DNA of 64,000 nucleotides from positions 36,830,001-36,894,000 of the forward strand of contig NC_086097.1 of NCBI RefSeq assembly GCF_963921235.1, written 5' to 3'. The position numbers and the translations under genes were made by a program. Source of the stretch: Mobula hypostoma. Lineage: Eukaryota. Below the pieces are notes generated by a model, which was not told the DNA's origin, did no database searches, and worked only from the letters and a program-made list of their open reading frames with translations. Every line of letters starts with the position of its first letter. Within the stretch, counting starts at the first letter, position 1. Shown here piece after piece: positions 2,851 to 60,316 of this stretch.

Positions 2851-3422
2851 TTATTTCAATAAGTCCCTCTATCTCCAATGGAAAATCTTAACATCCTCTC
2901 CCTGCCTTGTGTTCTCTATTAGAACACAATATTATTAACATTACCATCTGGAGTGGTCTTTTGGCCTTACTTCTCTGTTCATCGAGGTCATGGTCAATCT
3001 TCATCGTCAGCTCCATTTTCCTACACTATTCATAGTCCTTTAATTCCTCCAATGTCCAGAAATGTATCGACCTTGGCTTTAAATGTAAGAAAGTGGCATC
3101 CATCATCAAGGACCCCCAACATCCAAGCCATGCTCTCTTCTTACTGGTGCCATCGGGAAGGAGGTCCCACATCATCAAGTTCAGGAGCAGTTATTTCCCT
3201 TCAACCATCAGGATCCTGTACCAGCGTGGACAACTTCACTCACCTCAACACTGAATTGATTGCAGAACACTGAACACAACCTATGGACTCACTTTCAAGT
3301 GCTCTACAAGTCATGTTCTCAGTTCTACTTTTTGTTTATGTATGTTTTTTTTGCACAATTTGTCTCCTTTTGCACATTGGTAACTTATCTGTCTTTGCTT
3401 TTATGTAGTTTTTCATTAATTC

Positions 3423-3993
3423 ATTAATGGGTGTATGGGGTATCGGGGGGGTAGCACCTCTGGTGGAGGAACATGTCGTGTTCTTTTCAGGGCGGTTAGT
3501 TCACCTTTGGTCCCTACCTGGCACTCAGTTCTCACCTGTGGCTCCCCGTAGCTGTTTGCATGCGACAGCGGCCACAGCCCGGGCAATGGCTTCGACAAGC
3601 CAGCTAAACCAGGTGAAGGTAGCCGATGGGTCTCAAAACCTCGGTGAGATAGGGGGTTGTCTATCCCGGCATGTGAAGACAGATTCCGGCGGATTGAGCA
3701 GACGAGACCAATGGAAGGTCCAACGGTCAAGAAGGCGGTCTCTTGCAAGCATCGTGGAATGTGTAGAGCATGACTAGACACAGAAGACATCCTGGTCATC
3801 CACTGCGCCTAGTACCACTTCCAGCCGTCTCGACTCTTGTCTTGCCACTGGATCCAGATGGGAATTGGGAAGAGAGAGTGAGGCTGACGCTGCGCAACTC
3901 TCCCTCACTTAAATCCAAATCATGCGCTAGTCTCGACACCATCATCATCATAATGGTGTCGAGGTCTTCATCGATGACGACGATGGACAAACA
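3423..3993 (+). mobile_element. RTE-derived non-autonomous retroposon (family A)
   Basis: 9-bp TSD cattaattc (3414-3422/3994-4002); gcatcgtggaatgtg encodes ASWNV, the RTE endonuclease start motif; (GAC/GAT)n-like tail; homologous to 20341-20854. Confidence 0.75.
3429..3616 (+). ncRNA. Candidate HDV-like self-cleaving ribozyme with an L3 hairpin insertion
   Basis: P1/P2/P3/P1.1/P4 elements and a GCUAA J4/2 occur in HDV order (see findings); hand-folded only. Confidence 0.5.
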
Positions 3994-4334
3994 CATTAAT
4001 TCTATTGTACATATTTCTTTGTTCTATTTGAAAGTCTGCAAAAAATTTCAGGGTAGTATATGGTAACGTGTACTTGATAATAAACTTACATTGATTTTTG
4101 AATGGACACAATAACTGATCATCTATCATGGTCCATGGTAGGACATTCAAAAGATACACCATAAAATAAGTAAAGAAATTTCTCCTTGGCTCCATCCTAT
4201 ACAATTTGACCTTTTTCTGACACCGTCACCTCTGGTTCTAGACTCCTTAGCTAGAGGGAAAAAAGGAAATATCCTGTAAGAAATTATTTCCATGAGATCA
4301 TTTTTCATTCTTGCAACTCGTAGAAAATAAAGAT

Positions 4335-18699: not shown

Positions 18700-18942
18700 A
18701 GCTCACTTTCAAGGACTCTGTGACTCGTGTTCTCAGTGTTATTTATTTACACATTTATTATTATTGTTTTGGTATTTGCACAGTTTGTCCTTTGCACATT
18801 AGTTGCTTTTCAGTCTGTGTTTGTGTGTAATTTTTCACTGATGCTGTTTCATTTCTTTGTTCTACTGTGAATGCCTGCAAGAAAATGAATCTCAGGGATT
18901 CATATATGTACTTTGATAATAAATTTACTTTGAACTTTGAAT
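18700..18942 (+). mobile_element. Rex1-type 3' UTR
   Basis: ctcactttcaaggactc...gaaaatgaatctcaggg...aataaatttactttgaactttga, reverse match to 486-620. Confidence 0.8.
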
Positions 18943-20340
18943 TAAAAGCAGCAAGATGAAGTAATTTCAATAACTTGCACCCCACAACAGACCTTGTTAA
19001 AGAAATTACTTTATAATTAAGCTCCCAAACAGCCTCAGATTAATCCAGTATTTAAATTAAGATGCAAGAAATCTTCATTAGGAATTGTTACAATCAATAA
19101 CTTCTGTTTTACTGTCCTCATAAGGCAAACATAAGTGAAGTCACTTAAACAGCACCAAAACCCTGTGTAAGTTAGCAGAAGCCATGCATTAACATAGTAC
19201 GGCTAGGGGAAACATTCAGCAAGATGTCACACGGCAAATACAGCTCACGGTGGCTTTGAAGAAACAACAACAGCATGGCTTCTGAGGGCAGAACTGATAG
19301 GGGCAAGCAAAATATTTCAAAAAAAAATCCTGTGCAACCTTCCCCACCCCTATATCAAAATGACCTCACTTCCAAGCAAATAAAAGTCATCTCCTAGTCT
19401 CCCAAAAACTGTGGGCATGTACACAGTCTATATCCTGTAGAGGGCGCTCTAGGTCCAAACATAACAATAGTAACTGATGCAGAAGCAATTGCACTTCAAT
19501 AAAGGCACAGCTCACATTTCAATGAAATAACTATTAGAATCTGCATTTGAGCTTTGCTGGGGAATATCTTAGGGAATTAACTTACTATTATTCAGTCAGG
19601 CAGACATCAATTACCTCCTGTAAGTAGTTCATTAAATAGTGCTTTAAAGGTGCTGAGCGTCTGAGCAATTGGCTTCTGTATGAGAAGGTATTTCTAGATA
19701 TATCTCAGTAGGCCGGTCGATTTGATTCATCTCTCTCTGCATGTTTAGGCGAAGGGCCTCTTGCTTTCCCCTGGAAGAACACCAAACTTGACAGTTGCAC
19801 TTCAGGCCCCCCCCCCCCCCGTTGTGTCGGATCTGGTGGGATGGGACAGGTAGCTACTTGTCTGTGGTTAAGGCAATGCAAAAGTCAGTTCAAAGGCCTG
19901 TCAGATCTTTAAAGAAGCCTACTTCAAAGAACTTGCTAGAATTCAGGCTGCACAGAGTTAGATTTGCCTTATTCAGTAACCATGGTTACAAAGCAAAAAC
20001 TTGGCTTTTCAATTCTAACAACTTTTTACAATACCAAAATCACCAGTATGAAAGTATGATCAAAGCAGATACAAAAACAATAAAATAACCTGCTTGAAGA
20101 AACTGGTGAAATAGATACAAGACTTCGCACACAGGGAGAGTCTCCCACTTGTCCTCCGCAGATGCGGTGGGATGCAGCCGAGACTCCACACATAGGTAAA
20201 TAAAAAATCACCACAGGAAAATCTGCGGAAATTCACTCATTAGTCTCAGTAAATTTTGAAGATGCATTTAAACATTCTGTATTATCTATATTTTTCAATT
20301 TTCAGATTTGCCTTTTTTTTCCTTACAGTATCCCCAATGT

Positions 20341-20854
20341 AGGAGTATGGAGTGTCCAGGGAGGGGTAGCACCTCTTGAAGAGGCTTGTTATTGTCCATT
20401 CTGGGGCAGCTCACTCACCTATGGTCCACACCAGACACTTTGCTCTCACCTGCAGCGCCAAGTAATTGTTGGCATGCGACAGTAACCGCACCCCAGTACA
20501 CTGCTTCGGGCTAAACCAACCAAGGGTAGCGGTGGACCTCGTATCCCGGAGAGGTAGCGACATGTCACGTGAAGTCAGCTCTGGTGGACTGGGTGGATGA
20601 GGTCAGCAGCGAGATCTAAAGGCCAGGAAGACGGTTCTGCAATGCTTTGTAGAGAGCAAAGGGCATGATAAGGTTCAGAAGAAGTCATGGTCATCCACTG
20701 CAACCAAGGAAGACCCCAGCTTGTGACAACTACTCGTACACTGGACCTGGACTTCGAGGTTGGAAGAGTGGAACTGCCCAGTGCAACAGCCTTTCCATGT
20801 TAAAAACTCCCCAGCACGGAGACCTGTCACTGTTGGACATGACAGACAAACGAC
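20341..20854 (+). mobile_element. RTE-derived non-autonomous retroposon (family A-related, older)
   Basis: 11-bp TSD atccc(c/a)aatgt (20330-20340/20855-20865); aligns along its length with 3423-3993. Confidence 0.75.
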
Positions 20855-21668
20855 ATCCCAAATGTTAATTTTAAAACAAAAATTATATTTTAACTTAGCC
20901 TTTTTTTCAGATAAGGAATGGTGGGGAGTATAGCGTAAGATTTGAGCTCAACTTTGTAATGTAGAAATAGAAACTGCTCACAGTCTCGTTTTCTACATCT
21001 CACAGTCCATTCACCCAGCTAGATGTCTGAGATACTGGTGATTTCATTCACACAAATTTATCAAATTGAAGTTGAATTTAGCCTACTTTTAGCAGGAAAA
21101 TCAACTTCAAAGCCAAAGTCAAAGTCACGACATGAATAACATGTGTTAATTTCAACTTGCGCCCACACATTGACAGATGTTCTATAAGCTGCATCACATA
21201 GTGTGCAGAAGCTGCTTTGTCACTTGGCTTCTTTCTGTTTCTCTCCTTGAGGTGTCTCTTCTCAATTGCCGGTGGAATTGGGAGCCACACTAGGAGTCAG
21301 GTATTCAAGTGTCCATGCTTGACGACTAAAGCCGCTGTGTTCATGTTCACGTACACCACCCAATGAGGCTTGCTTGCAAATATTACAGCACAAAACATGT
21401 ACAAAAGGGTTTGAAAATAGGCTAAAAATGAAAATACTCACTGTGGTAAAATATAAAGCCATAGAATTGTACAGCAAAGAAAGTAGGCCCTTTGGCTCCT
21501 ATGCTAATCCCATTGGACTACATCAACTATCTATTCACTTCTTTTCTATCCAAGAACCGCTCCAAATGCCTTTTAAACATTGTCATTATACCTGTCTCTC
21601 CCAACTCCTCTGACGGCTTGTTACACCTCTCTGTGAAATAAAAAGAACATCAAGAAATAACTCTGGTT

Positions 21669-25399: not shown

Positions 25400-28300
25400 T
25401 GACAACAAGGCTTCATTCCAAAATGACCACAATGCCTTCTATGTTCACTTTGACGGACATAACATGGAGGAACCTTCACAAACACCCACAGCCCCCGATG
25501 ACCCTGTGACTTCAGTCTCTGAGGCCGACCTGAGAATATCCTTCAGGAGGGTGAACACATCGAAAGCACCTGGCCCAGATGGGATACCTAGCCAAGTACT
25601 AAAGACCAGTACTGATCAACCAGCTTGCATGTTCACCGATATACCCATATAACTACATAACCATATGATGTCTTGCATCGGCAGTCTGAGGTACCCACCT
25701 GCTTCAAGCAGGCTAAGAAGAACACGGTAACCTGCCACAATATCTATCATCCAGTAGCACTTCTGTCCACCGTGATGAAGTGTTTTGAGAGTTTGGTGAT
25801 GAAACCCATCAACTCCTGCCTGAGAAGCAGCTTGAATCAGCTCCAATTTGCCTACCGTTACAACAGGTCCACAGCAACTGCCATATCATTGGCTCTTCAA
25901 TCAACCCTGGAACATCCGGACAGCAAAGATGCATACATCGGGATGTTCTTTGTTGCTGACTATGGTTCAGCATTCAATATTATCATCCCCTCAAAACTAA
26001 TCAATAAGCTTCATGACCTTGGCCTCAAGACCTCCTTGTGCAATTGGATCCTGGATTGCCTCACTTTAAGTATGACCATAAGACATAGGAGCAGAATTAG
26101 CCCATTTGGCCCATTAAGTCTGTTCTGCCAACCATCATGGCTGATCCTTTTCTTCCCCTCCTCAGCCCCACTCCCCAGCCTTCTCCCCATAACCGTTGAT
26201 GCCATGTCCAATCAAAAATCTATCAAGCTCTGTCTCAAATACACCCAATGACCTGGCCTCCATGGCTGCCTGTGGTAATAGATTCCATAAATTCACCACC
26301 ATCTGGCTAAAGAAATTTCTCTGCATCTCTGTTTTAAATGGACGCCCCTCTGTCTTGAGGCTGTGTCTTCTAGTCCTAGACTCTCCCACCATGGAAAACA
26401 TCCTTTCCACATCTACTCTGTCTAGGCCTTTCAACATTCAAAAGGTTTCGATGAGATCCCCCCGCTCATCCTTCTGAATTCCAGCAAGTACAGACCCAGA
26501 GCTATCAAACATTCCTCATATGATAACCCTTTCATATCCGGAATCTTCCTTGTGAACCTCCTCTGAACCCTCTCCAATGCCAGCACATCTTTTCTAAGAT
26601 GAGGAGCCCAAAACTGTTCACAATACTTAAGGAGAAGCCTCACCAGTGCTTTATAAAGCCTCAGCATCACATCCCTGCTCTTGTATTCTAGACCTCTTGA
26701 AATGAGTGCTAACATTGCATTTGCCTTCCTCACCACCAACTCTATCTGCAAGTTAAACTTTAAGGTGTTTTGCATAAGGACTCCCAAGTTCCTTTGCATC
26801 TCAATTTTTTGGATTTTCTCCCCTTTTAGAAAATAGTCTGCACATTTATTTCTACTACAAAAATTCATGACCATTCATTTTCCAACATTGTATTTTATTT
26901 GCCATTTTCTTGCCCGTTCTCCGAATCTGTCTGCAGTCTACCTGTTTCCTCAACACTACCTGCCCCTCCACAAATCTTCGTAACATCTGGAAAACTGGCA
27001 ACAAAGCCATCTATTCAATGATCAAAATTATTGATATACAGCATGAAAAGAAGTGGTCCCAACACCGAGCCTGAAGAATACCACTACTTACTGGCAGCCA
27101 ACCAGAAAGGGATCCTTTTATTCCCATTCACTACCTCCTACCAATCAGCCAAGGCTCTAACCATGCCAGTAACTTTCCTGTAATACCATGGGCTCTTAAC
27201 TTGGTAAGCAGCCTAATGTGTGGCACCTTGTCAAAGGCCTTCTGAAAGTCCAAATATACAATATCCACTGCATCCCCTTTATCTATCCTACATGTAATCT
27301 TCTCAAAGAATTCCAACAGGTTCATCAGGCAAGATTTTCCCTTAAGGAAACCATGCTAACTTTGTCCTATCTTGTTCTGTGTCACCAAGTATTCCATAAT
27401 CTCATTGTTAACAATTGACTCCAACGTCTTCCCAACCAATGAGGTTAGGCTGACAGGTCTATAATTTCCTTTCTGCTGTCTTTCTCCTTGCTTAAAGAGT
27501 GGAATGACATCTGCAATTTTCCAGTCCTCTAGCACCATCCCAGAGTCCAATGATTTTTGAAGATCATTACTACCAGTACCTCTCTCAGAACCCTACGATG
27601 CAGTTCATCTGATCCAGGTGACTCTCGTACCTTCAGGTCTTTCAGCTTTTTCAGCATCTTCTCCCTTGTAATAGAAACTACACTCACACCCTTCAACATC
27701 TGGCACACTGCTGGTGTCTTCCACAGTGAAGACTAATGCAAAATACTCATTTAGTTCATCTGCCATTTCTTTGGCCCCATTACTATTTCTCCAGCCTCAT
27801 TTTCTAGCAGTCCTATATCCACTCTTATCTCTTTTATTTTTTACATACTTGAAAAAGCTTTTACTATCCACTTTGATATTGTTTGCTTGCTTGCTTTCGT
27901 ATTTCATCTTTTCCCTCCTAATGATTCTTTTAGTTTCACTCTCTAGGTTTTTAAAAGCTCCCCAATGCTCTATCTTCCCTCTATTTTTTGCCCTCTCTTT
28001 TGTTTTTACATTAGCTTTGACTTCCCTTGTGAGCCACCGTTGTACTATTTTGCCATTTGAGTATTTCTTTGTTTTTGGAACACATCTATCCTTCACCTTC
28101 CTCATTTTCCCCATAAACTCATGCCATTTCTACTCTGCTGTCATCCCTGCCAGCACCTCCTTCCAATTTATTTTGGCCAACTCCTCTCTCGTACCACTGC
28201 AATTTCCTTCACTCCACTGAAATACTGCTATGTCAGACTTTACTTTCTCCCTATCAAATTTCAAGTTGAACTCAATCATATTGTGATCACTGCCTCCTAA

Positions 28301-54355: not shown

Positions 54356-56109
54356 TACATTTAACGAGTCAGCATCTACTGCCTCTCTGAGCAGAGAATT
54401 CCACAGATTCACTACTCTCGGGGGGGAAAACAGTTTCTCCTTATCTCTGCCCTAAATCTATTCCCTCGAATGTCCCCTAGTTTTAGTTTCTAGTGGAAAC
54501 AATTTTCCTGCCTCTATCTTATTTATCCCTTTCATAATTGTATGTGATTCTATTAGAGCCTCTCTCATCCTTCTGAATTCCAGTGAGTATAGTCCCAGGT
54601 GATTCAATCTCCCATCTCTAAAATTAACCTTGTGAATTTCCTCTGTACTGCTTCCAAACCCAGGATATCTTTCATCAAGTAATGGGACTAGAATGGTACA
54701 CAGTACTCAACGTGTGGCCTCACCAGTACCCAGTATGGTTGCGGCATAACCTCCCTGCTCTTAAATTCAATTCCTCTAGCAGTGAAGGTCAAAATTCCAT
54801 TTGCCTTCTTGATAACCTGTTGCATCTGTAAACCAACCTTTTACGATTTATGCACAAACACCCCCAAATCCTTCCGCACAGCAGCATGCTGCAATCTTAC
54901 ACTATTTAAATAATAATCTGAATCTATATCTCTCTTCAGACTCTCCACATCTTTTGTACAATTTGCTTTTCCGCTCAATTTAGTGTCATCAGCAAACTGG
55001 TTTTGGCCTAGTTATGTTTCCTCAGGATTTAGCGGATTACCCATTTCCACATTACTCTTAATCCTCCCAGCTGCAAGGCCGAGCAGTTGATTTCCGCCTG
55101 TGAGTGATCTCTCTCCCCTTTGCCCTGCCAACCTGTGAGGTTCCTGGGATTTTCTTCATGGCTCTTGCTTTCTGCTCCACAAACTCCCAGTAGACTACAA
55201 AGTCATTATTTACTTTGCTAGCTGCCCCTCGCCAAATTGACTTTCTTTTCGCCCTGTGGTCATTTTGTTTTTCCTTTTTCAAACAGTTAGTCCTTTTTCT
55301 TTTTAAAAATCTCTCCTAGGAGAACAAAAAATTCTTCGAACTTTGAACACAATTCCCCTCGTCCCTAAGATGGGTGGCTTACATGTTTGTTACAATTTAC
55401 ATTCATTCCATAAGCTTGGTATTTTTCCCATGACATTTTCCTGTCTACAGCCCCTTCAAAATTGCTGAATCTGCAAAACAAAATTCTGTTGATGCAGCAG
55501 AAGTATTCTGCTGTTTCACGGTATAACGAACACAACCAGAGTTGCCTGCTTTCTATTCATATCCTCGTGGCTTACTTCATGGCACAAGCCTGCCGAAAAG
55601 AGCCCATGGTCTAATGTTGAACAAATTTAGTGTCTTCTTCTCAAAGTTGGAACAAACTGTGATGGCATTGCGTTCACTGTCCGCAAAGCCCTAAATTCAA
55701 AAAAAGATTTTAAGCCCTATCCAATATGGGTATCAACATGTACCCTCACTACGGGGAGATTATATTGTATTAGTCATCCTACTGGTCAAATATTAGCTTA
55801 CTTTCCTGTCCCTGTGGCAAGGTCTAGCTGCCAATATACACTACTCGAGTGGTGGGTCTATCCTCCCTACAAAGGAGGGGATACTTCCAGCAAAGAAAAT
55901 AGTTCAAACACAGTTTATTTTATTTTTACTGACATAGGTTAATTTTAGACAAGTAGTTCTTAACAACATCTAAAACTCAGAGGATTTCTGATCTATAAAA
56001 GATTTCCAAATTACAAAAGGTTTATAAGCTACAAAGGATTTCCAAATATAAGTGAAATACTTCTGAACTGAAAGAACACACCAACGAGTTGCAGGTGAAT
56101 GAGTCGTCT

Positions 56110-56665
56110 GCCACACCTGGAGTATTGTGTGCAGTTTTGGTCTCCAAATTTGAGGAAGGACATTCTTGCTATTGAGGGAGTGCAGCGTAGGTTCACGAGG
56201 TTAATTCCCGGGATGGCGGCACTGTCATACGTTGAAAGCTTGGAGCGACTGGGCTTGTATACACTGGAATTTAGAGGGATGAGAGGGGATCTGATTGAAA
56301 CATATAAGATTATTAAGGGATTGGACATGCTAGAGGCAGGAAACATGTTCCCGATGTTGGGGGAGTCCAGAACCAGAGGACACAGTTTAAGAATAAGGGG
56401 TGGGCCAATTAGAACGGAGTTGAGGAAAAACTTTTTCACCCAGAGTTGTGGATCTATGGAATACTCTGCCTCAGAAGGCAGTGGAGGCTAATTCTCTGGA
56501 TGCTTTCAAGAAAGAGTTAGATAGCGCTCTTAAAGATAGTGGAGTCAAGGGATATGGGGAGAAGGCAAGAACTGGATACTGATTGTAGATGATCAGCCAT
56601 GATCACAGTGAATGGCGGTGCTGGCTCAAAGGGCCGAATGGCCTACCCCTGCACCTATTGTCTAT
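56110..56665 (+). mobile_element. 5'-truncated CR1 LINE
   Basis: PHLEYCVQFWSPNLRKDILAIEGVQRRFTRLIPG...KNFFTQ; tail cctattgtctata. Confidence 0.95.
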
Positions 56666-58623
56666 AAACTGAAGGTTAAGGAATGAATTCTTGAGCTCTC
56701 CTTTCTGTCACCCTGTCTTTCTGTCGTTGTCCTTATCATTCCTAGCATTCTCCAATGTTTTCTAACACATAGTAACAGTGGGGATTATTACCTCTACTGG
56801 GACAAAGTAATTCACATAGATGGTCTAAAAGCTTCTGGGGACAGTAATCCGAGGCACCCAAAATTAATGCTGTGAGGGCTGATTCTGAGTACAAAAATAT
56901 CCCAACTTTTGATTGATTCACTAAACCTGTGACCATGTTTGTTGTGCTAAGTGACAAAATCAGTCTGCTCTGAACTCAGTCCCAATGGTGCAAATAATTT
57001 AGCCAGTGCTATCTTGTTTGATGCAATTAACATTGCCTTACCTTGATTAACCATGAGCTGCCATGATCTCACTGTTTACTTGTTTACAAGGAGCTGAGTA
57101 AGCAACATTTGTTGGAAGTTTAACTTCATTACAGCCAGTTCTGAGCCTTTGGAAAGGCAATGCTGCTATGCTAGAAAGCTGAGGTTCGCAATAAGCCTGC
57201 TGGGGCCTGGAAGGTGAGTATCTGTCACAAAACTGACCACCACATTTACCGCATTACAATAGCAGCTGCATTCCAAAAGGATATATCCTTTGAACGTTGA
57301 GCCTTCTCGGAAAAACAAAGCATTTCCAAGTGTTGAATAATTCCAAATCTTTATCTCTCTTACAGAGCAAGGTTATTGATGGTACCATCTGCTCTAAGAC
57401 TTAAATAGAAAGAAGAAAGAAAAAGTGACTGAAAAAAATTTTCAAGTGATGGCAAATATTTAGTGGAAATACAGTTGTTTTCTGCGTGGATTACAATTGT
57501 TAAAGTGTCTTTGAAGAGTGCATGGAAATGTAATTTTCATCAGAAATTTACTTTGCAGCAAAGGCCAGGAAATAGATGAGGCGCACAGCTTTCTGATTTA
57601 TTAAAGTACAGCTCATTGGTTAATAGTGGAGCTCAGCCAGACAGTTTTCCACTTGCAGTGGTGATATTTACTCTGGCTTGGAGTTCTGTAAATCGTAGCC
57701 ACGACATCAGTATTTTTCCATTCTGCCATGTTCATTCATTTTCCTTATTGTTTTTCCACACTATTTTATTGCTTTTTAAGTTTCCATTATCTCTCTGAAA
57801 TTCATTAGATGCTGTACCCATTGACCTATTCTTGCTTTCTGAACCTTGCCTCTTTGTATTAAAGAGCTCGCCTCTTTTCTGTTTGTTTTGAAGTTTGAAA
57901 TTTTCACCAAACACATTTCAGAAATCTTAAAACAAAGCTAGAAATAATAATTACCAAAACAGACAACTGATGTCATAATATTAGACATATTGAAAACTAC
58001 ACTGCGAGCAGTCCAGCTTCCCCTGAGAATGTTTTTAGCTGAAGATTAAATCACGCGGAAGCTTGTTCAGCAGAATGTTATATTTGTCATTCAAGGTTCT
58101 ATGCATTGTACCACAGTGGTCTCTCTTGAGAGGTTAACATCGTGGTAAAAAACTTCTTCAAAACTCCTACGTACAGTACATTAAAATTATCGGCATCCAG
58201 AGGGAGGTGTTCAGCCTCCTCCTAGATCTGATGTGGGATCGCTCAGTCAAAATTGCAGGAAGCAGGATATTTTGATGTGTAATTTTTCAAAGAGGGAGCA
58301 TGACCTATGACCCTCCACCCTTCTCCTAGAAAGAGCCTATAACTCTCCTTATGAGTTTTGCTTGTCACACTGATTGGCATATATAGTTGTTCAAACCAGA
58401 AGTAGAAGCAGTGCAGAGAGACAATTTGTCAATTCCAGACATAAAGCTGACTGAAAGAGCTGTGGAAATTTAGGCAACTGGAATCATACTGGATCATCTC
58501 TATTCCTGGAGGTCTTTTAAAATCAAAGGTGCTATTTCTTTCACTCTCTGCAGCCCTCCCATCTCAACAAAATTAGGCCTAAGGCCTGATATTAAGGTTT
58601 TATCAGGCCCATCAGTCTCAGCA

Positions 58624-60316
58624 GCTTGAAATAGCAGGGGACAGAGGGTCCAGTGAGATGGAGGAACTGAGCGAAATACATGTTAGTAGGGAAGTGGTGT
58701 TAGGTAAATTGAAGGGATTGAAGGCAGATAAATCCCCAGGGCCAGATGGTCTGCATCCTAGAGTGCTTAAGGAAGTAGCCCAAGAAATAGTGGATGCATT
58801 AGTGATAATTTTTCAAAACTCGTTAGATTCTGGACTAGTTCCTGAGGATTGGAGGGTGGCTAATGTAACTCCACTTTTTAAAAAAGGAGGGAGAGAGAAA
58901 CTGGGGAATTATAGACCGGTTAGCCTAACGTTGATGGTGGGGAAACTGCTGGCGTCAGTTATCAAGGATGTGATAACAGCACATTTGGAAAGCGGTGAAA
59001 TCATCGGACAAAGTCAGCATGGATTTGTGAAAGGAAAATCATGTCTGACGAATCTCATAGAATTTTTTGAGGATGTAACTAGTAGAGTGGATGGGGAGAA
59101 CCAGTGGATGTGGTATATTTGGATTTTCAAAAGGCTTTTGACAAGGTCCCACACAGGAGATTACTGTGCAAACTTAAAGCACACGGTATTGGGGGTAAGG
59201 TATTGGTGTGGGTGGAGAATTGGTTAGCAGACAGGAAGCAAAGAGTGGGAATAAACGGGCCCTTTTCAGAATGGCAGGCGGTGACTAATGGGGTACCGCA
59301 AGGCTCAGTGCTGGGACCCCAGTTGTTTACAATATATATTAATGACTTGGATGAGGGAATTGAATGCAGCATCTCCAAGTTTGCGGATGACACGAAGCTG
59401 GGTGGCAGTGTTAGCTGTGAGGAGGATGCTAAGAGGATGCAGGGTGACTTGGATAGGTTGGGTGAGTGGGCAAATTCATGGCAGATGCAATTTAATGTGG
59501 ATAAATGTGAAGTTATCCACTTTGGTGGCAAAAATAGGAAAACAGATTATTATCTGAATGGTGGCCGATTAGGAAAAGGGGAGGTGCAACGAGACCTGGG
59601 TGTCATTATACACCAGTCATTGAAAGTGGGCATGCAGGTACAGCAGGCGGTGAAAAAGGCGAATGGTATGCTGGCATTTATAGCGAGAGGATTCGAGTAC
59701 AGGAGCAGGGAGGTACTACTGCAGTTGTACAAGGCCTTGGTGAGACCACACCTGGAGTATTGTGTGCAGTTTTGGTCCCCTAATCTGAGGAAAGACATCC
59801 TTGCCAAAGAGGGAGTACAAAGAAGGTTCACCAGATTGATTCCTGGGATGGCAGGACTTTCATATGAAGAAAGACTGGATGAACTGGGCTTGTACTCGTT
59901 GGAATTTAGAAGATTGAGGGGGGATCTGATTGAAACATATAAAATCCTAAAGGGATTGGACAGGCTAGATGCAGGAAGATTGTTCCCGATGTTGGGGAAG
60001 TCCAGAACAAGGGGCCACAGTTTGAGGATAGAGGGGAAGCCTTTTAGGACCGAGATTAGGAAAAACTTCTTCACACAGAGAGTGGTGAATCTGTGGAATT
60101 CTCTGCCACAGGAAACAGTTGAGGCCAGTTCATTGGCTATATTTAAGAGAGAGTTAGATATGGCCCTTGTGGCTACGGGGGTCAGGGGGTATGGAGGGAA
60201 GGCTGGGGTGGGGTTCTGAGTTGGATGATCAGCCATGATCATAATAAATGGCGGTGCAGGCTCGAAAGGCCGAATGGCCTACTCCTGCACCTATTTTCTA
60301 TGTTTCTATGTTTCTA
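58624..60316 (+). mobile_element. Young 5'-truncated CR1 LINE; RT open except for one frameshift near 59090-59100
   Basis: ORFs 58658..59227 and 59104..60219: KSPGPDG, NYRPVSLT, SQHGF, YLDFQKAFDKVPH, GVPQGSVLGP, SKFADDTKL; (TTTCTATG)n tail. Confidence 0.97.

Follow-up and report, generated by a model that had tools for sequence, protein, structure and literature searches.

The question raised by this locus is whether a short retroposon without a coding frame, whose 5' end looks like an HDV-like ribozyme with a hairpin inserted in loop L3, can cut its own RNA out of a host transcript. Below we take it up step by step for the window, that is, the whole 64-kb stretch of DNA analysed here. All features are given on the + strand, except the TSDs, to which no strand is assigned.

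The retroposon and its autonomous relative

The element lies at 3429..3993 and is 565 bp long with a TSD on both sides. As the sequence-only reading had claimed, it has no long ORF: the longest ATG-started frame measures 74 aa on the + strand and 123 aa on the - strand, and the protein of the RTE relative L005 gives no match to 3429-3993 by tblastn. The left TSD, CATTAAT, is at 3422..3428 and matches the right one at 3994..4000, and the 3' end at 3993 coincides with a depth plateau and loose ends in public contigs. CATTAAT occurs twice in the left flank (3414-3428), and the TSD can be read either as 7 bp adjoining the element or as 9 bp (3414-3422, matching 3994-4002) plus 6 extra bases. The insertion target is an older repeat, with its left part at 3288..3415 and its right part at 4013-4103, both of which match 18702-18942 consecutively; public contigs run across the element and join the two halves.

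A second copy, decayed and belonging to another subfamily, is located at 20341..20854 with an 11-bp TSD (20330-20340 / 20855-20865, 1 mismatch) and 65% identity to the 3429-3993 element. It is broken in P2', P3, P1.1 and P4, with the U20 equivalent and one P1.1 G lost and the L3 stem intact. In both copies the first base corresponds to P1 position 2, and the TSD closes with AAT or AATGT, a pattern that could reflect microhomology at the 5' junction or a target preference. Outside the window, parts of the element are found in 20 of the 24 public runs listed (12 studies), half or more of it in none; in four runs, 9775, 8181, 2584 and 564 contigs match a 751-base stretch, counts that include the flanking repeat and in which depth is not copy number. 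The ORF-less element is abundant in several organisms.

The 5' part of the element is homologous to L005, a locus detected in a metagenome. Positions 3505-3806 align with L005 1474-1770 at 73% over 306 columns (E 1.7e-35), and the alignment continues to about 3925, covering most of the body at 3621..3930 that derives from an RTE 5' UTR. L005 begins at 1387 and likewise has the doubled start and the fold, L3 hairpin included, followed by about 790 nt of UTR and then by the endonuclease ORF. The protein of this contig (P0002) is a single ORF of 1090 aa with PF03372/PF14529 (endonuclease) and PF00078 (RT). The names of its relatives point to sea anemone, lancelet, turtles, sawshark, bony fish, crustaceans, snail and tapeworms, and its matches include proteins named craniofacial development protein 2-like. 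Judged by the domain layout, the match names and motifs that we take to be those of RTE, L005 is RTE-type. The link to RTE proposed earlier thus holds through the homology with the 5' UTR of an endonuclease-RT element.

At the other end, of four RTE loci tried, only L017 has a 3' UTR that the RTE-like 3' tail (3953..3993) resembles; the local match is weak, with 1 of 300 shuffles scoring as high, and L020, L021 and L022 give no match to the tail. Since the 5' part is homologous to L005 and the 3' tail resembles an RTE 3' UTR, the element is best read, on its sequence, as a bipartite non-autonomous RTE derivative, which is a known kind. It has several traits of bipartite LINEs, namely the absence of an ORF, the TSDs, many dispersed copies, and a 5' end homologous to that of an autonomous LINE (L005). 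One such bipartite non-autonomous LINE with a ribozyme 5' end is NARTc. Directly 5' of the tail there is a long hairpin (3931-3970) that has a short arm rich in (CAT)n, and a 6-base deletion near 3940 is frequent in public runs. In addition, RTE-like animal retrotransposon sequence (L017-L022 and L024) turns up in GTDB, in contigs assigned to bacterial genomes and MAGs, where it is most likely host contamination.

The HDV-like fold and the hairpin inside L3

Every segment named in the sequence-only reading is verified at its place, and the helix order is confirmed as an HDV-type double pseudoknot by complementarity in both the 3429 copy and L005, with the nesting P1, P2, P3, L3, P3', P1', P1.1', P4, J4/2 and P2'. 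The 5' strand of P1, GGGTGT (3429..3434, positions 2-7), pairs with the 3' strand ACAGCCC at 3574..3580. Position 1 is G in L005 and, in the 3429 copy, T3428 of the TSD, and the predicted cut site is directly 5' of it. In L005, P1 (1387-1393) pairs 7/7 with P1' and starts at the element's first base, a purine, as in HDV-like ribozymes with their P1 of 6-7 bp, while only 5/7 pairs form in the 3429 copy. P2 was placed correctly at 3532-3539 (TCACCTGT) and 3608-3616 (ACCAGGTGA) but its extent was underestimated, as the extended 5' strand of up to 12 bp occupies 3528..3539 and the 3' strand, with one bulged C, 3608..3620, giving 11/12 pairs in the 3429 copy. A check of the sequence finds P3 as GGC (3540..3542) with GCC (3571..3573). 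For P1.1, GGG at 3581-3583 had been proposed; the place is right but only two of the G's (3581-3582) are used, and this GG, which forms with the following CAA the P1.1 and J1.1/4 segment at 3581..3586, is kept in L005. The P4 hairpin (3587..3602) has a z of -2.43 in the 3429 copy and -2.44 in L005. It is followed by J4/2, GCTAA at 3603..3607, which matches the CNRA of the published descriptor; C3604 is the equivalent of C75, and C3604 T A A is invariant in three sequences, namely the 3429 copy, the decayed copy 2 and L005.

Loop L3 is where the family departs from this pattern. The canonical part (3543..3550) begins with six bases matching TYYHCG, for which the published RNArobo descriptor, in the excerpt of PMC4870747, prints the L3 line as 'TYYHCG Y'. 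The equivalents of U20, C21, C22 (P1.1), C24 and G25 are 3543, 3544, 3545, 3547 and 3548, and the head with U20, G25 and P1.1 is present in both the 3429 copy and L005; G25 pairs with U20 and is required for activity (PMC13635239, in part). After the head come two more bases, the hairpin, one G and then P3'. The inserted hairpin with this G spans 3551..3570 and consists of a 6-bp stem (3551-3556/3564-3569) and a 7-nt loop. The whole L3 therefore takes up 28 nt (3543-3570) in the 3429 copy and 26 nt in L005, in place of the L3 of 7 and 8 nt that closes directly on P3' in the CPEB3/antigenomic and genomic HDV references. On sequence features, the 3429 family is HDV-like in everything except the length of L3.

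The L3 hairpin described earlier is also found in L005 and in the decayed copy 2. Its stem is paired in 16/16 cells of the three sequences, the decayed copy included, with one two-sided and one one-sided change, and in L005 it is short by one base on each side. Taken alone it is no more stable than shuffles (z -1.34 in the 3429 copy and +0.40 in L005). In antigenomic HDV, according to the consulted part of PMC3386971, C29, located after the G of the G-U pair and before P3', bulges out without making a specific contact and ranks with the least conserved loop bases; a hairpin projecting from the same spot is thus plausible. The consensus drawings in the available part of PMC8256844 confine expansion to J1/2 and P4, so we infer, by analogy with C29, that the L3 hairpin would be tolerated with the active site left intact.

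The loop of this hairpin contains the palindrome GCATGC (3558-3563), which is invariant in the three sequences. As 1 of 25 invariant 6-mers, with about 0.4 expected, it is not significant by count, and only its location in the loop is suggestive. Between two RNAs it would form a 6-bp duplex with a computed energy of about -8 kcal/mol. A GCATGT at 3669-3674 (L005 1632-1637) could also make 6 bp with the loop, and the predicted folds bury it elsewhere. The palindrome could thus serve pairing of two RNAs, pairing with the downstream GCATGT, or nothing but chance. It is a doubtful speculation, to which we give little credit, that an animal-wide RTE lineage carries an undescribed HDV-like subclass with a third expandable site within the catalytic loop, in which the invariant GCATGC would be a kissing loop that docks the ORF-less RNA onto that of the autonomous partner, whose protein it could then borrow. 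An RNA dimerisation step is known from retroviruses, and we know of none from non-LTR elements. The CPEB3 ribozyme also has a palindrome in the L3 region, but there, as far as the excerpt of the preprint tells (bioRxiv 10.1101/2022.09.22.508989), it has 4 nt, lies in the catalytic loop and yields inactive dimers, while here it has 6 nt and sits on a separate hairpin.

We then turn to the letters of the family in public contigs, which were taken from 40 of the 128 rows listed and are unlinked between positions. P1' reads ACACCCC in the family, with C at 3577 in 99.3, 98.4, 78.6 and 99.6% of depth (runs X1, X2, X12 and X15). At 3617 the family has G (95-99% of depth) and at 3529 it has C (97-99% of depth), and the family letters at these three positions repair or strengthen three imperfect pairs of the 3429 copy. 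The imperfect P1 remarked on earlier is therefore real in this copy, but its G3577 is private, the family having C and L005 a P1 of 7/7. Both sides of the first P4 pair are swapped by T3587>C (48-99%) and A3602>G (53-98%), again as unlinked letters. A loose-end consensus from X1 (98 records) represents a second subfamily with GG, another J1.1/4, a P4 of the L005 type, and a P1' ending in T, which would make the first pair G-U. Run X15 consists of contigs only guessed to be RNA, and thus shows neither expression nor cut ends.

Over 140 cells of the three full sequences, 87.9% are paired, a value reached by 3 of 500 shuffles and compared with 37-47% in slid controls; the structure was drawn from the same three sequences as were scored. 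Two-sided changes occur in 5 pairs, of which two are in P4 (against L005), two in the inner stem of J1/2 and one in the L3 stem. P1.1 has no two-sided change, and P1, P2 and P3 have one-sided variants only, in three sequences of which one is decayed.

Taking the fold as modelled, we consider with a probability of about 0.75 that intact members of the family self-cleave at the element's first base through an HDV-like double pseudoknot with an L3 hairpin, freeing RNA for the RTE protein. Read-through host transcription would yield the element RNA inside a host transcript, where it would fold co-transcriptionally into the pseudoknot, with U20-G25, P1.1 and C75 formed as in HDV. The C3604 equivalent would act as general acid, with Mg2+, and cleavage would release an RNA starting at P1, while the L3 hairpin would project from the spot of HDV's bulged last L3 base and leave the active site untouched. 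The RTE-type 3' tail would recruit the autonomous RTE protein in trans, and this protein would carry out target-primed reverse transcription, the first base often being lost.

An unlikely alternative, yet the one that survives best, is that the family descends from an HDV-like ribozyme whose L3 insert ended cleavage or changed its job to protein binding or translation start, the 5' end being set by an internal promoter. L3 is indeed part of the active site, but U20, C21, C22, G25, GG, C75 and the CNRA strand are kept between L005 and the 3429 family while the letters of J1/2 and P4 diverge. An internal promoter of L1Tc can overlap such a ribozyme (PMC3383444, in part); here, however, the 5' ends fall on P1 position 1-2 of the first repeat in 3/3 copies, in agreement with the predicted cut site. 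What else favours a switched-off ribozyme is that GT/AC pairs can lengthen P3, at the expense of P1 and P2, into a long rod of P2, P3 and the hairpin, as preferred by the nested MFE of L005, and that the ATG in the hairpin loop opens an upstream frame of 55 codons in L005 (1528-1695).

The P1 register and the predicted misfold of the 3429 copy

The register of P1 had been called ambiguous, and the reason is a second P1-like repeat, GGGGTAT at 3437..3443, which follows the first with a period of 9. J1/2 (3435..3527) was correctly described as long, but it is a structured hairpin of the P1.2 type rather than a mere linker. The second repeat forms its outer stem with 3521-3526, and in L005 the corresponding stem (1397-1402 with 1490-1495) has a probability of 0.93-0.98 in the predicted fold. 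Across the three sequences 17/18 cells of this stem are paired, and the fold z of J1/2 is -1.87 in the 3429 copy, -2.72 in L005 and -0.21 in copy 2. With the second repeat held in the outer stem, the first one is left for P1.

We regard it as still less probable than a switched-off ribozyme that an active one cuts in front of 3437, at the second repeat, or uses both repeats. For R2, a cut at one or the other of two duplicated P1 strands has been proposed (PMC3774820, in part), and in L005 both repeats pair 7/7 with P1' at -11.8 each; the first can also replace the second in the outer stem, the gap being about 3 kcal/mol in rough energies with pseudoknot penalties omitted (-82.9 for register 1 vs -80.1 for register 2). 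A cut at the second repeat, however, would lose the first in every cycle, yet all three copies keep it. In L005 the two repeats are interchangeable as partners of P1', but the J1/2 stem and the 5' ends favour the first register. In this register the second repeat would be held in the J1/2 hairpin, and the hairpin together with the long P2 would pinch P1 and P2 together, as in drz-Agam-2 of Anopheles gambiae. The drz-Agam-2 ribozymes head RTE elements. They share with the 3429 element the structured J1/2 (P1.2), the P2 extended to 12 bp and the HDV core, and differ in that the excerpt of PMC4908430 mentions no L3 hairpin and that the 3429 element has a doubled P1 strand. In the same excerpt (Webb et al. 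2016, PMC4908430), the structured J1/2 and 12-bp P2 speed drz-Agam-2-1 by nearly three orders of magnitude.

Within J1/2, a 4-nt bulge TAGC (3452-3455; L005 1413-1416) is conserved in all three sequences within a helix that itself varies. The bulge complements the first four bases of J4/2; it may bind a protein or make an inhibitory contact.

The 3429 copy itself is a poor representative of its family. Two pairs of its P1 fail, as position 1 is the last TSD base and G3577 faces a G. G3577 also makes P1' a twin of the 3' strand of the hairpin, so that 3551-3555 captures 3574-3578, and the predicted misfold pairs off the catalytic strand. In rough energies that omit pseudoknot penalties, the ribozyme fold of this copy has -67.6 and the misfold -77.6, about 10 kcal/mol apart, while in L005 the pseudoknot with -82.9 is compared with -74.8 for the best nested fold. 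The competing pairing TGTGGC/GCCACA, noted as a caveat in the sequence-only reading, is real (-24.9 vs -21.7 before P1 is counted) and is outweighed where P1 is perfect. As modelled, the 3429 copy is probably dead and the family probably is not; with this copy predicted to misfold, the claim of activity belongs to the family only. Two other arrangements were tried and rejected. An alternative P1 at 3490-3496 pairs 6/7 with the mutated P1', but it needs G3577 and gives no rescue (-66.7 vs -77.6), and if 3551-3553 closed an L3 of the canonical 8 nt, no P1' would remain on inspection.

Searches, known systems and meaning

Our own descriptor asks for a P2 of at least 7 bp with one bulge, a 3-bp P3 ending in C-G, an L3 starting with TYC..G, 7 nt, P1.1, a P4 of at least 4 bp and CNRA, P1 not being a filter. 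With L3 set to 6-9 nt it detects 0 sites on both strands of the 64-kb window, which bears out the earlier expectation that short-L3 descriptors miss the fold. With L3 relaxed to 6-40 nt, as had been suggested, it detects one site on both strands (3543), and among 35 retrieved loci only L005 matches. In 2852 block-wise dinucleotide shuffles of the window it finds 104 sites (0.036 per window), or 9 (0.003 per window) with P2 and P4 as strong as those of the real site; the descriptor was composed after the site had been seen, so these rates are somewhat flattering. It is hardly credible that GC-rich repeats of a structured UTR fell into this order by chance. The nested fold of 3429-3616 (188 nt) is indeed no better than shuffles (z -1.27), and Rfam at E up to 10, its HDV, CPEB3 and drz-agam models included, reports no ribozyme family for the 3429 stretch (5 matches) or L005 (1 match). 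Against chance, however, stand the few chance sites expected, the location of the site exactly at an RTE 5' end, where such ribozymes are known, and its conservation in a divergent autonomous element.

The DNA pattern scan of the metagenome gives 14 loci, of which 13 are chance and one is the homolog L005, and the viral scans give 2 and 11 loci, all chance. Protein-based scans find relatives in 0/4 and 0/194 viral stretches and in 0/46 of GTDB, and none of 8 RTE-like loci from a further protein-based GTDB scan has a matching 5' UTR. A covariance model of the three sequences recovers no further copy in the window or in six RTE loci (best other E 0.18).

HDV-like ribozymes are known at the 5' ends of RTE elements and in their non-autonomous derivatives (PMC5786205, PMC3774820 and PMC6765202, each in part), and RTE elements also use twister variants (excerpts of PMC8501958 and PMC7761336). 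With the HDV-like ribozymes of 7-8-nt L3, the 3429 family shares the location at the first base, the predicted release from a co-transcript, the CNRA in J4/2 and the TYYHCG head; it differs in an L3 of 26-28 nt with a hairpin of 5-6 bp. With RTESINE1/2, WALLSI3 and Bov-A (PMC5786205, in part) and the R2 SIDEs (PMC3414825, in part), it shares a ribozyme-type 5' end joined to a 3' tail, the lack of an ORF and, presumably, mobilisation in trans. Four short motifs of the family are absent from the supplement of PMC5786205. In full-text searches, which covered neither figures nor Ruminski 2011, we found no L3 hairpin in HDV-like ribozymes, and none is mentioned in the excerpts of PMC13708176, PMC4035085, PMC10879173 and the CPEB3 preprint. 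The L3 hairpin is thus provisionally new, as an addition to the known ribozyme-headed RTE elements.

That such ribozymes process the 5' end of RTE RNA is established. If the family is active, L3 would be a third site of growth beyond J1/2 and P4, and both descriptor and Rfam searches would undercount HDV-like ribozymes in animal genomes. Activity would also account for the defined 5' end of a short and very abundant retroposon that has no tRNA head, and would offer a new site for grafting aptamers beside the active site.

The window contains, in addition, a fairly young reverse transcriptase in two overlapping open frames at 58583-60219, presumably of the CR1/L2 type by its motifs; fragments related to it lie at 26071-27561 and 56029-56665.
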